DNA of 60,680 nucleotides, filler included, from Dugesia japonica (Eukaryota): NCBI GenBank assembly GCA_001938525.1. It is 6 parts of 6 records of this genome, joined end to end, with 100 filler letters (N's around TTAATTAATTAA, not from the genome) between each part and the next. Parts side by side here need not be neighbours in the genome. Positions count along the whole stretch, not along the records: positions 21,276 to 32,410 come from MQRL01611353.1; 5 more parts are not named here. One strand, 5' to 3'. Shown piece after piece: positions 27,043-31,039 of this stretch. Both the position numbers and the translations under genes were made by a program. Position 1 is the first letter of the stretch. Each line of letters opens with the position of its first letter. Under the pieces are notes generated by a model. That model was not told where the DNA came from. It did not search any database and worked only from the letters and a program-made list of their open reading frames with translations.

Positions 27043-27245
27043 GAACCAATCAGAGACCCAAAATTAAAAATAAAACAAAGAAGGAACCATCACATGGCCC
27101 TCTAAAAATACTTACCAATCAAAATTCCAAAACTCTACGAAAATTCTGGAANGACGGCACCAACACCAATAAAATTCTGGAATTTTAAACTAAAAATACT
27201 AACCAATGAGAACGTTGCCGGGTTGTATCGGAAAATCCTATAAAA
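27043..27245 (+). promoter_or_regulatory. Pol II promoter: four CCAAT boxes plus TATAAAA (27239-27245)
   Basis: CCAAT at ~27046, 27115, 27165 and 27203, then CCTATAAAAGGAC. Conserved in copy A. Confidence 0.6.
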
Positions 27246-27939
27246 GGACTTAGCAAAAAAAAGGTTTTAGCAAAAAAAAGGAGTTTATTAAATTCAATTT
27301 AATTCAAGTCAATAAGACTCAAGTTCAGCATTAACAAAAAACTGTGTTCTTCACGAATTTCAACAAACAACTAAAAGTGTTCTATTAACTGATTACTCNA
27401 ACTCTCAACAAGTGGTAGTAATATCTCCTGACCAGAAACATTCAATTGCACGAGAAAAACGTACAGGCCAGAAAGAGGATTAACCGTATCTAGGCGAGAA
27501 GAGAAAAATAATTAATTGAAGAAACCGTTCTGAGCATTTGGTACCGATTACAGCCCTGTTGCAGAAATCTCTAAATTTTTTGACTAAAAGAAAAGTAAAT
27601 TTTCATTGTAATTATATTTAAATGTTATTTTATGATTAGTGAAATATTATGGATAAAAATATATATATCATAACTAGTATATTATTTACAAAAATTATTA
27701 TAACCATTAATAGACGGTAAGAAAATTTTTCTTAACTTCCCCGTCACCCTGTACGATACTGAGTAATCCGTGCACAGGAAAGTAAGATGATCCAGCTAGA
27801 CCCTAGTTGAAAAAAATACAGACATTACGATTTAAGTGAGAAAATGGGCTCAGCCGATGATTTTAATTGCAATAATAAAACATGTAAACCCACACATTGA
27901 TCAGTACCATTAATAAGGAAAATTACTATCGCTATATTT

Positions 27940-28450
27940 ATTTATTTTGCGAGAAAACATAATTCATCTCGATTAACTCCAAATTATGAACAAGTCTAGG
28001 AGATCCATGAGAGAGCGATCAATGAAAATGTCGAATAAATTCCAATAATAACAAGTTAATAAGCCAACGCAATACCAAATGCCGATAATTCCCAAACGAA
28101 ATTTTCTGTTAAAAAATTGAGAGATTCCATGTAGAATTTCAAGTTGTGGTAACATAATTGGGTTGACATGCATGGCATTGTTAGGTGACTCATTGCATGA
28201 TTACTGAGGTTGTTTTCAGTCTATCTACTGAATAACCCAGCACACATATACAGATGAAATGGTCAGGGTGTTATACACATGGAATGTTCCTAAGCAACCA
28301 ACGAAGGCGTAAAGTCAAATTTCTTGAAACTCTGAAATAATTAAAATTTATTATAATTAACACAAGTTATTATATTTACTGTTTTGTTACAAGCTGCACT
28401 AATGTTATAATAAATTACTGAAGTTATTCTAGTTACAAGGGCCATTTCAT
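27940..28450 (-). pseudogene. Antisense two-exon gene remnant encoding a Cys-containing segment and a C-terminal TM helix
   Basis: 48-nt GT-AG intron at 28332-28379; NIPCV*HPDHFICICVLGYSVDR; VWELSAFGIALAY*LVIIGIY; downstream AATAAA. A positional counterpart (VLEFTNTSIALGY) lies at ~1005-1045 on the plus strand. Confidence 0.4.
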
Positions 28451-28856
28451 TGTTAGGAGTGTCTATCAGTAGCAGATCATTTCTAAATCAGCAGCAGACT
28501 AGGAACCGATTTGACTATCAACTTTATTTTACTACTATTTTTCAGTATAAATCACGTCTATGTTACATAAAATGATGTATAGGGTTCCGTCCACCGGTAT
28601 TAATGTATCAAAGTGATTATTATTTACTATAAGTAATTTTGTTTATGTTAACTCTACTTTTGATACGACGGTGGTTTTAAATATTAGTGAAATCCGACAA
28701 TTAGCCAAAGGGTCTGAATTGGGATTATTCAATAAACTAATATGGTGAAGTCAGAACGAGCCGTCATCTTAATAATATTCGGCAAAATGATCGATAATTA
28801 GTTGAGAAACTTAATCACGTGGGATGACTTAAAACCCGTTTTTCTTCATTTAGTTT

Positions 28857-29063
28857 ATGTCAAACGAATTGAGCCGTACCCTCAAATGGATAAGAGGTCG
28901 ACGTCAAACCACTCAGCTGAAACAGCTCATTGCTCATCTTTTAACTAAGGGTAGTATTGAACACCCGGAGGAGACAGACCTGTGCTGTTTCGCGGAAATG
29001 TTCCCCTTAGTGTCTTCTGTAGATCTAGATGCAGAGCGAGCATCACCTAAAGCAGGAGTGTAA
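28857..29063 (+). CDS. Mini-ORF 1 (68 aa), unknown
   Basis: Intact ORF in GC-richer DNA, acceptor TTCTTCATTTAG immediately upstream, homologue at 92-277. Confidence 0.65.
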   Translation: MSNELSRTLKWIRGRRQTTQLKQLIAHLLTKGSIEHPEETDLCCFAEMFPLVSSVDLDAERASPKAGV

Positions 29064-29199
29064 TCTGTTAATTGTTTTTCTTGTATAAAATCAAGGTACA
29101 AGTTGATGGGTTCTCATTGTTAATTTCGTTTGTTTATTATTAGTTTATTTAAGAAAGTTATATATTATAATTGAAACCACCTATATATTAATTCCAGAT

Positions 29200-29556
29200 A
29201 TGGAGTCAATTTGGGAAAGGGTAATAGACCGAAGAAGTCGTCGCATAATCTTCCGACGACACCACAACTCTCATAATAGGGACGCGGGCATCTTGGCCGA
29301 CAGATTCAACCTGCCCCCAGAGGAATCAATAGTCGAACGTATCCGAGATTTCGTCGAACGCCAGCAATATCAAAATTGGTCAGGTCCCGATCGCAATCTT
29401 GTGACCTCTTTCCGTTACCAGTCTTCCGTCCCCGCTCCTGCTCCCGCCGTGCAGGCTTTCATTTCGAATCTTTTCTGGGGAGTCAGGGAGCCTAATGGGG
29501 TAACTGACATTGAAAACACCGCCCCTAACCCCGACAATAGTAGTGATCCCTCCTAA
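29200..29556 (+). CDS. Mini-ORF 2 (118 aa, Arg-rich N-terminus), unknown
   Basis: Intact ORF at ~50% GC in a very AT-rich background, ATTCCAG|AT-ATG, AATAAA at 29578. Confidence 0.65.
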   Translation: MESIWERVIDRRSRRIIFRRHHNSHNRDAGILADRFNLPPEESIVERIRDFVERQQYQNWSGPDRNLVTSFRYQSSVPAPAPAVQAFISNLFWGVREPNGVTDIENTAPNPDNSSDPS

Positions 29557-29827
29557 TCCTTTTGGTTTTTTAGGATAAATAAATAAGTGTTTTAATTGTG
29601 GCTATTGCTAATTTTTCTTGTAAAACGAAATTCTAATAATAATAATTGGATGTTGGTTTTAATAGATTTCTTTAAAAATAAAATAATAGTAATACGGAGA
29701 AATGTTTGTAGCTGAATTAATCTTATGACCTTCACTCAGTATTAATTTGGTGGGACAGACTACGTTTTTTTTTTGTTAGACTTAAACATCTAGTAAGATG
29801 TACCATTTTTTTATGTTTATATTTCAG

Positions 29828-30141
29828 TGCATTCGTCATTGAATAGATCACAGGCCCCGGCAGAAAAATTACGAGCAGATAGTGAGGACATGGAACTCAC
29901 ATGGGATCTATACCGTCTCGCTAAAAGGCGATGGGAAGCGGAAACTGCAGCGGCCGAAGCTAAGGTGAAACGGTATAAGCGGAAGTGTTAAGCTTTTAAA
30001 ACTGAGTTGGACGCTACCCAGAATCAAGAGAGGGTGTGGAAGTCCCAAGTCAAAACTTTTGCCACGATTATTAAATCTTATAAAGAACGTGAGAGTCAGC
30101 TTTTAGATAATATATTGAAGTTGAGAGCCGCTACCCATTAG
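29828..30141 (+). pseudogene. Mini-ORF 3 (~104 codons, helical/coiled-coil-like, one internal stop)
   Basis: ATTTCAG|TG-CAT-TCG...MELTWDLYRLAKRRWEAETAAAEAKVKRYKRKC*AFKTELD...LRAATH*. AATAAA at 30215. Confidence 0.55.
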
Positions 30142-30401
30142 CTCCCTTTCTGATTGATAAAGGTACTCAGACTAACCGCTCTTGAGTTACCATACCTACG
30201 GATTTTGTTGCTTTAATAAATTATTTTGTGTATATCCTTTCTAATTGGTTTCTCTAACTTCAAAAAATTAGTGTCTGACAACTTNNNNNNNNNNNNNNNN
30301 NNNNNNNNNNNNNNNNNNNNNNNNNNNNNNNNNNCTTTCTAATTGGTTTCTCTAACTTCAAAAAATTAGTGTCTGACAACTTAACTATAATTTTTATTTA
30401 G

Positions 30402-30784
30402 TGACACGTATTAATTTCCCCAACAGCATCCGAAGGTGCCATCGTATTTTGCGACGACTCCTTATCGAGAGACACCTAAAGCGTAAGGCGGATAGGGCTA
30501 TCTTAAAACACTTNGCCCAACGGGACCAACTTATAAAACGATTGGACTTAGTAGTTCGTAAACAGAACGACTTGGCAATTCAAACCAAAGCCCTAGAGGC
30601 AGAGAACAGGAAGTTATTATTACGCAAAATAGATTTCCTGAAACAATACATAGCCGGTCTCTCCCACCAAATAAGCAACCCAACTGTAATTCAATGGGAC
30701 GATAATGATGATATCGCCGCCTTCAACTTTTCAGTGACCGATACGGACCAGTGGATGGATCCAGGGGCGCTGGAAGTGCTATAA
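30402..30784 (+). CDS. Mini-ORF 4 (~127 aa, basic N-terminus, coiled-coil middle, acidic tail), unknown
   Basis: TTTTATTTAG|TG-ACA-CGT opens the frame and there is no ATG near its start. AATAAA at 30806, homologue at 16720. Confidence 0.65.
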
Positions 30785-31039
30785 ATAATTCTTGTTTGTC
30801 TATGAAATAAAATGTATACAATTAATATCGTACCTTCTTTCTTTTACTGATAATATTAGGGAAAAGAATGAACCCGAACGCAAAGGTTTATGGGTATGTA
30901 CCTCCTATTAAGAGTGAGGTCAACCACCATGAACTGAAGACCTGCCCAAGGGGCAGTAGGGTAAATTCTTGGAAGGGTTCCCCTGAGGGCTGTTTTTCCC
31001 CAGCCACGTTAATTCTTCACTCAACTCAGATGGGACCCC

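Follow-up and report, generated by a model that had tools for sequence, protein, structure and literature searches.

A candidate alternatively spliced cassette of four small reading frames within a likely giant Ty3/gypsy terminal repeat of Dugesia japonica

We examined a 60,680-nucleotide (nt) stretch of DNA from Dugesia japonica (assembly GCA_001938525.1), hereafter the window, along which all positions are counted. It consists of six scaffolds of an AT-rich eukaryote with N44-TTAATTAATTAA-N44 spacers between them, has a GC content of 16-39% and holds many (AAT)n runs. The unit of interest lies on the scaffold at 21276-32410, in a repeat of at least 4.4 kilobases (kb) that is likely the giant long terminal repeat (LTR) of a Ty3/gypsy retrotransposon. 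As read from the DNA, a promoter internal to this LTR probably drives one non-coding leader exon that is cis-spliced to each of four open reading frames (ORFs) as alternative terminal exons. The idea of one leader joined to alternative terminal exons had been put forward in an earlier note on this DNA; it finds support at the DNA level, but the donors named there are probably wrong and no junction read was seen. The features that carry the argument are given below (a slash in a motif marks an exon boundary; aa, amino acids).

27046..27246, plus strand: promoter motifs, four CCAAT boxes and TATAAAAG; the first box and the TATA box are kept in the second copy
27267..27594, plus strand: predicted non-coding leader exon without ATG and with a final A; its start is inferred from the distance to the TATA box
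27595..27600, plus strand: predicted splice donor A/GTAAAT at a GC step from 0.35 to 0.14; third on a crude donor score
27595..28853, plus strand: predicted intron, containing GTAAGA at 27717 and 27782, 27 ATGs and four AATAAA
28854..29063, plus strand: predicted acceptor, then ORF1 of 68 aa with its own ATG at 28857; AATAAA is absent after it
29198..29583, plus strand: predicted acceptor, then ORF2 of 118 aa with its own ATG at 29200; AATAAA at 29578
29828..30220, plus strand: predicted acceptor, then TG and ORF3, 103 codons past the junction codon, coiled-coil-like, AATAAA at 30215
30402..30811, plus strand: predicted acceptor, then TG and ORF4, 126 codons past the junction codon, with a basic start, Leu/Ile heptads and an acidic tail, AATAAA at 30806
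1..2644, minus strand: second, diverged copy, with its TGTTGGGG start at 2644, TATA at 2048, leader 2020-1633, donor at 1632, acceptor at 279 and ORF1 at 277-92
16720..17032, plus strand: third relative, matching ORF4, highly diverged and frameshifted, on a different scaffold; an acceptor then TG in the same register, and a stop overlapping AATAAA

The promoter proposed earlier is present, with CCAAT at 27046, 27115, 27166 and 27203 and TATAAA at 27239, and it is the only place where four CCAAT fall within 200 nt among the 129 CCAAT on both strands of the window. A scan for these motifs returned 1 viral and 63 metagenome loci, of which 0/64 matched beyond the motif. Downstream of the TATA box the predicted leader of the main copy (327 nt) contains no ATG against 3.3 expected from dinucleotide shuffles (P 0.017), and that of the second copy (388 nt) contains none against 5.3 expected (P 0.0007); in the window, 106 of 10514 stretches of the former length and 40 of 10291 of the latter are free of ATG. 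The first ATG past the TATA box stands at 27622 in the main copy, and the second copy is ATG-free from 2020 to 1586. In both copies the ATG-free leader ends in A/GTAA(A or T)T at a sharp fall in GC (in the second copy A/GTAATT at 1632, GC 0.35 to 0.15), and ATGs return 27 nt after the donor in the main copy and 47 nt after it in the second. No plus-strand frame longer than 53 codons lies wholly inside the predicted intron. The two GTAAGA sites favoured in the earlier note, at 27717 and 27782, do exist and rank first and second on the crude score that we applied to donors in 27260-28853 and to acceptors at 105 YAG sites (Y, pyrimidine), but they are probably not the donors used. We place the shared donor at 27595 because both sites lie behind three ATGs, one related contig no longer has the GT at 27717, and another related contig is unaligned over 27694-27796, the stretch that holds them both. 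An AG/TG site at 27640, 45 nt past the predicted donor, is probably a chance occurrence.

The four same-strand, GC-richer frames described in the earlier note are present (GC at first codon positions 0.48-0.55, against 0.22-0.33 in the spacers), but ORF3 carries a stop, and neither ORF3 nor ORF4 has a start ATG of its own. The in-frame stop of ORF3 occupies 29989-29991 in the main copy, whose first own ATG in this frame is at 29890; it is a minority state, most family contigs being open there (in X2, 23 contigs and 778/835 of the depth; in X9, 10 contigs and all of the depth). ORF4 has its first own ATG only at 30755; an AG/TG at 30735, in frame near its end, is probably due to chance. In dinucleotide shuffles the probability of such an open frame is 0.015, 0.015, 0.005 and 0.001 for ORFs 1-4 when the frame is given, and 0.15, 0.05, 0.16 and 0.005 when any of six frames is allowed. 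A pyrimidine-rich, acceptor-like AG does precede each frame, as had been claimed, ending at 28853, 29197, 29827 and 30401; these rank 2, 12, 6 and 10 among the 105 YAG sites, so that all are good and none is outstanding alone. A branch-point-like TTAAC lies 21 nt upstream of the ORF4 acceptor AG. The reported AATAAA signals were likewise recovered 22, 74 and 22 nt past the stops of ORFs 2-4, against a background of 0.21 per 80 nt that makes the signal modest alone. Since none follows ORF1, this frame likely shares the poly(A) site of ORF2. Between ORF3 and ORF4 lies a 50-N assembly gap (30285-30334) with an exact 48-nt duplication on either side (30237-30382), which is an assembly overlap; contigs of two runs bridge the gap.

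The dinucleotide TG directly follows the acceptor in both frames without an ATG (ORF3 and ORF4) and is absent after the three acceptors whose frame has its own ATG within 3 nt (ORF1, ORF2 and ORF1 of the second copy), the background for AG/TG being 23 of 304 acceptor-like sites. The third relative keeps AG/TG in the exact register of ORF4, and the exon-final A at the donor is compatible with all six acceptors seen. Transcription would start at about 27270, and the donor at 27595 would be joined to 28854, 29198, 29828 or 30402. Where TG follows, the leader-final A would complete it at the junction and so create an A/TG start codon for ORF3 and for ORF4. ORF1 and ORF2 would share one poly(A) site, while ORF3 and ORF4 would each use their own. 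Each mRNA would yield one protein, because many ATGs come first in an unspliced RNA and no start codon is available to ORFs 3-4.

The diverged copies bear on constraint. The diverged second copy claimed in the earlier note is real (68% over 226 nt, E 7e-15) and has its TATA box at 2048, with the acceptor (279) and ATG (277) of its ORF1 also in place, but the accompanying ORF1 homology is thin: it consists of position and of 22 codons around a 111-N gap with 10 identical residues, and tblastn alone gives E 6.1. Over these codons, in two blocks chosen after alignment, the proportion of changed silent sites (pS) is 0.77 and that of changed replacement sites (pN) 0.36 (Fisher p 0.007). For ORF4, tblastn finds the third relative at 16737-16939 (E 0.009, two frameshifts), which blastn misses. 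None of 300 shuffled queries reached this match and none of 2000 its three-frame score, and among the 23 acceptor-like AG/TG sites the third relative ranks directly below ORF4 itself. The stretch containing it is flanked by a direct repeat of 620 nt (13004-13625 / 17286-17923, 90%). In an ungapped scan the true relative was outscored by another ORF4-like match, at 54872 on the minus strand. This match lacks an acceptor, and we dismissed it as due to chance. Relatives of ORFs 1-3 sought upstream of the third copy reached at best 6/200 shuffles among 18 tests and were not accepted.

In addition, 2384 contigs of one DNA run align on 27230-30830 at 80% identity or more, making this a multi-copy repeat family. 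The tables of indels, joints, substitutions and depth drawn from such contigs hold tool-selected rows, AT-rich spacers are prone to indels, and contig depth is no ranking measure; with these limits, the 12 indels listed of 76 in one table all fall outside the frames (P 0.005 if uniform), as do the 12 listed of 43 in a second. Summed contig depth is 67-342 in 13 bins before ORF1, 197-713 between ORFs 1-3 and 640-6200 inside ORFs 2-4. The diverged copies remain alignable more over frames than over spacers. Of the 15 joints listed (21 in total), 8 re-enter homology either at the ATG of ORF2 or no more than 40 nt upstream of the acceptor of ORF3 or ORF4, a count that excludes one joint merely bridging the assembly gap; the re-entry points for ORF4, 30364-30379, lie just before the branch-point-like TTAAC. 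As judged from these comparisons, the frames are evidently under constraint, and so are the acceptors.

The repeat that contains the cassette is delimited by three further features:

25805..26584, plus strand: broken Ty3/gypsy pol remnant, with the end of reverse transcriptase (RT), RNase H and the start of the integrase zinc-binding part; Pfam RT_RNaseH_2, E 2e-27
26599..27045, plus strand: upstream purine-rich, U3-like part of the repeat, from the alignment of a family contig; 26858-27081 is 68% like 2429-2207
30860..31041, plus strand: terminal block, GC 0.51, common to very many contigs; it ends in ACCCCAA and is followed by an (AAT)n run

Its minimum length is set by a family contig that aligns from 26599 and by the end of the unit at 31041. 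With 7 of 87 pol relatives aligned back (tblastn), the pol homology spans 25805 to 26584 at most and gives out before the integrase core is reached. The remnant adjoins the repeat on the same strand and in the order RT-RNase H-integrase, as in an LTR element, and we infer that the two belong to one element. The junction at 26584-26599 lacks the integrase core and the TG end, and a purine run at about 26624-26637 is not followed by the end motif of the second copy; a TG-starting end is present in that copy and missing at the 26599 end of the main copy. The ACCCCAA end of the main copy (31041) mirrors the TGTTGGGG start of the second copy (2644), the two ends being seen on different copies, and a Pfam search found no transposase in the unit. 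On the simplest reading the repeat is likely the 3' LTR of a deleted Gypsy element, as the mirrored ends and the adjoining same-strand pol remnant suggest. Within it, the cassette may be part of U3 and have an internal promoter of its own; the last 260 nt would then hold R, U5 and the promoter for genomic RNA. This placement is suggested by TATAAA at 30780, which overlaps the ORF4 stop, by AATAAA 26 nt later at 30806 and by the widely shared terminal block; since TATAAA occurs 6 times in the unit, the balance in its favour is slight and close to even. R and U5 in the last 260 nt would keep strong-stop DNA short; if instead genomic RNA began at the CCAAT/TATA promoter, R-U5 would measure 3.8 kb. 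Under either geometry genomic RNA must read past the internal poly(A) signals.

Several observations concern the terminal block itself. An AG at 30859 precedes a possible fifth frame of 58 aa on the plus strand, from ATG 30868 through 31044. The terminal motif contains the stop of this frame, which may extend into the internal region in full-length elements. A G/GTATGT donor-like site lies at 30894. The block shows no unusual RNA fold (z -0.44). Its 40-nt core (30962-31003) occurs in very deep contigs of X8 and, in run X13, in some 15 partial poly(A) reads, from which it follows that related families are present and that some RNA holds the core.

A number of results weigh against leader splicing inside an LTR. 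The RNA material comprised three raw RNA runs and four contig sets guessed as RNA (X8, X9, X21 and X24). From the three raw runs, of which 6-25% was screened in each case (1.6-1.9 billion letters each, without an expressed control gene for comparison), came 48, 15 and 9 partial reads, none with a joint; among the runs only X13 touched ORF3, and no read ended at an acceptor, coverage being near zero. Joints of the GT..AG type numbered 0/10 in one table and 0/15 listed of 21 in the other. Contigs of X8 run unspliced over the donors, over ORF1-ORF2 and over ORF2-ORF3. X8 and X9 cover the unit unspliced and may be DNA, the depth shape of X9 resembling that of the DNA run; X21 and X24 gave just 2 and 3 short AT-rich matches. 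The main copy is broken and seems silent in the samples examined. Animals with a piRNA-pathway knockdown show derepression of Gypsy elements (PMC8532177). The donor at 27595 is only third on the crude score, and it lies 31 nt from a shared motif, the corresponding distance in the second copy being 55 nt. The 22 codons of ORF1 were picked after alignment, the indel and depth tables carry the selection noted above and depth ranks nothing, and 7 of the 13 frame substitutions listed change the residue (the ORF3-stop row is excluded, and the rows include the main copy's own decay). In the third relative TATAAA is missing at the stop, and there is no terminal block in the vicinity. Finally, the two LTR ends were not seen together on any one copy, and neither a polypurine tract (PPT), a primer-binding site (PBS) nor a target-site duplication was shown.

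Other arrangements of these same features have to be set against this reading. The acceptors could instead receive another 5' exon, one that is coding and ends in phase 1, for example ATG G/GTATGT at 30890-30894 from the 5' LTR, in the manner of the HTLV-1 (human T-lymphotropic virus 1) tax junction. ORF2, ORF3, ORF4 and ORF1 of the second copy are all in phase 1, and 30894 is a strong donor within the most shared block, but ORF1 of the main copy is in phase 0, an out-of-phase ATG (30868) precedes the site, and three things are left unexplained, namely TG only at acceptors without an ATG, TG in the third relative and the ATG-free leaders; we consider a coding exon unlikely. Slightly less probable again is that splicing holds and the container is something else, a DNA transposon with TG..CA ends or another cargo-carrying repeat beside which the pol remnant is a chance neighbour. 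That no paired LTR, PPT, PBS or target-site duplication was seen would fit such a container, as would the mosaic make-up of the scaffold, where the remnant of a Polinton-like polymerase adjoins, and the third ORF4 relative standing without the terminal block; against it speak the same-strand pol remnant next to the repeat, a terminal inverted match of only 7 nt, as in LTRs, and the promoter and poly(A) motifs inside a unit without transposase.

The earlier note had also offered a polycistron resolved by spliced-leader trans-splicing, which suits the operon-like layout with short AT-rich spacers. Trans-splicing has been described in planarians, and flatworm spliced leaders end in AUG, as shown for parasitic species (PMC12582326). 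Yet in the frame set by a leader AUG, ORF2, ORF3 and ORF4 stay open for 8, 4 and 0 codons and ORF1 of the second copy for 1, so that only ORF1 of the main copy is open and ORF4 is left without a start; moreover, ATG avoidance would not be expected in an outron that is discarded. This alternative is therefore unsupported if the host is a flatworm, the leader AUG putting ORFs 2-4 out of frame, and we rate it very unlikely. Least probable of all is the view that the frames represent exons captured from the host, successive exons of a single gene, or functionless GC-rich relics. No expression was seen, the main copy is broken, and ORFs 1-3 alone are only mildly unlikely when any of six frames is allowed, all of which would agree with it. 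It sits poorly with the excess of silent changes in ORF1 and the lack of any listed indel in the frames, with the deeply diverged ORF4 relative that also ends in a stop with AATAAA, with the weakness of donors inside the frames (best 2.7, against 5.3), and with our finding no host homolog.

The earlier description of the four products as unrecognised small proteins stands, since none matches any family searched. Pfam gave no match at cut-off for any of the four frames, ORF3 having weak coiled-coil matches below it; 0/1 candidates survived in the protein search with ORF1 and 0/8 in that with ORF2, which also had no usable match in Atlas. No relative of ORF4 appeared among 1.84 billion representatives, and part of it found nothing above 0.82 in Atlas, bZIP_2 coming only at 0.80 with 17% of members, which is chance level. 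Relatives of ORF3 were absent from Pfam at cut-off and from the window, the only places searched. No relationship among the four proteins could be detected (best E 0.37). An AlphaFold2 model of ORF2 alone was unusable (predicted local distance difference test score, pLDDT, 39.8). None of the frames has a membrane stretch or Gly2, the highest 19-residue hydropathy being 1.04. ORF1 and ORF2 start basic and ORF3 is coiled-coil-like; ORF4 is not a Pfam bZIP, and its basic start, heptads and acidic tail are present nonetheless. Speculatively, the proteins could be nuclear regulators of the element, with ORF4 resembling a basic-zipper-acidic transactivator.

Elsewhere in the window, several elements make up the mosaic scaffold at 21276-32410, where remnants of a Polinton-like polymerase (minus strand) and of the Ty3/gypsy pol (plus strand) lie upstream of the unit. 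The former, at 23117-25864 with a second copy at 9981-11212 (plus), is a type-B DNA polymerase of the protein-primed kind, now broken, that has a Cys/His part resembling endonuclease VII; it has no Pfam match at cut-off, and from its motifs we take it to be Polinton/Maverick-like. An RNase H scan of viral contigs found no relative. A decayed Ty3/gypsy element at 38500-41135 (plus) has gag zinc knuckles, an internal deletion, RNase H, integrase and a purine tract, and ends in a short LTR-like piece running into (AAT)n. A further broken Gypsy pol (RNase H, H2C2, rve) lies at 44197-45484 (minus), and 43794-43931, which recurs at 47318-47454 (94%), may be its LTR. Below the Pfam cut-off are a DUF659 (hAT-like) frame remnant at 42357-43349 (plus) and a DDE_3 transposase remnant at 51658-52248 (minus). 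A near-perfect palindrome of 270 nt (92%) occupies 52808-53075.

If the cassette is real, it would be a four-gene, alternatively spliced unit in an invertebrate Ty3/gypsy LTR, that is, retrovirus-like regulatory complexity arising in a retrotransposon. Its four protein families are absent from the sequence libraries searched, its junctions are predicted to the base, and solo LTRs, usually counted as dead, could then be expressed gene units. A bolder generalisation, which we offer tentatively and at rather less than even confidence, is that the LTR is a self-contained adenovirus-late-like unit in which an internal promoter and one leader feed at least four new protein families and splicing makes two start codons, every solo LTR being a mobile multi-gene regulatory operon that encodes the transactivator or anti-silencing proteins of the element.

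As a rule LTRs do not code for protein, and the exceptions on record have a single gene or a part of one (PMC4667437, PMC12789967). Among the literature listed in our searches nothing described several spliced genes as a cassette in the LTR of a retrotransposon; the planarian genome paper of 2018 and Repbase reports, which may describe these LTRs, lie outside the literature covered. One close likeness is sag in U3 of mouse mammary tumour virus (MMTV), a protein-coding gene in an LTR with extra U3 promoters, which survives in solo LTRs and, as here, keeps the LTR alignable across lineages (PMC12789967, PMC4667437). According to the same sources, however, sag is one membrane-protein gene of a vertebrate retrovirus, whereas here four unrelated frames stand behind one leader with several poly(A) signals, no hydrophobic stretch and no match to sag. 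Foamy viruses also have a second promoter for accessory genes (tas, bet) at the 3' end, but that promoter is situated in env rather than in the LTR and serves two genes (PMC12789967).

A start codon completed by splicing, predicted here from DNA, is known in a Ty3/gypsy element from env of Drosophila errantiviruses of the springer subclade, where AU/G serves one large gene of the internal region (bioRxiv 10.1101/2023.08.03.551782). By contrast, A/TG would here serve two small genes in a terminal repeat, with a leader shared with genes that have their own ATG; no F-type envelope was recognised among the frames, which at 68-127 aa have no membrane stretch and no env family match. The MDG1-group sORF1 and sORF2 are likewise small accessory genes (70-110 aa) of Ty3/gypsy elements with an alternative poly(A) site between them, sORF1 being nuclear and sORF2 a myristoylated membrane fusogen; they are two genes upstream of gag, with transcripts for which no splicing evidence is given (PMC11952523). 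The N-myristoylation motif and single transmembrane helix of an sORF2- or FAST-like fusogen (PMC11952523) were found in none of our four frames. Planarian Burro/GYPSM1 and plant Ogre are oversized Gypsy elements with extra ORFs, the LTRs of Ogre reaching 1.9-6.5 kb, and their extra coding capacity is placed in the internal region, none being described in an LTR there (PMC6431247). Burro/GYPSM1 has a giant internal polyprotein with BIR, BCL2, MATH and env-like parts; here just a short pol remnant stands beside the repeat. Each part of the arrangement (a gene in an LTR, an internal promoter, a split start codon, small accessory genes) thus has a precedent, and the combination was not found. A comparable overall layout is that of the adenovirus major late unit, in which one promoter and a common non-coding leader serve alternative acceptors grouped by poly(A) site; adenovirus is a DNA virus expressing structural genes behind a tripartite leader, and the likeness is one of analogy only, without homology.

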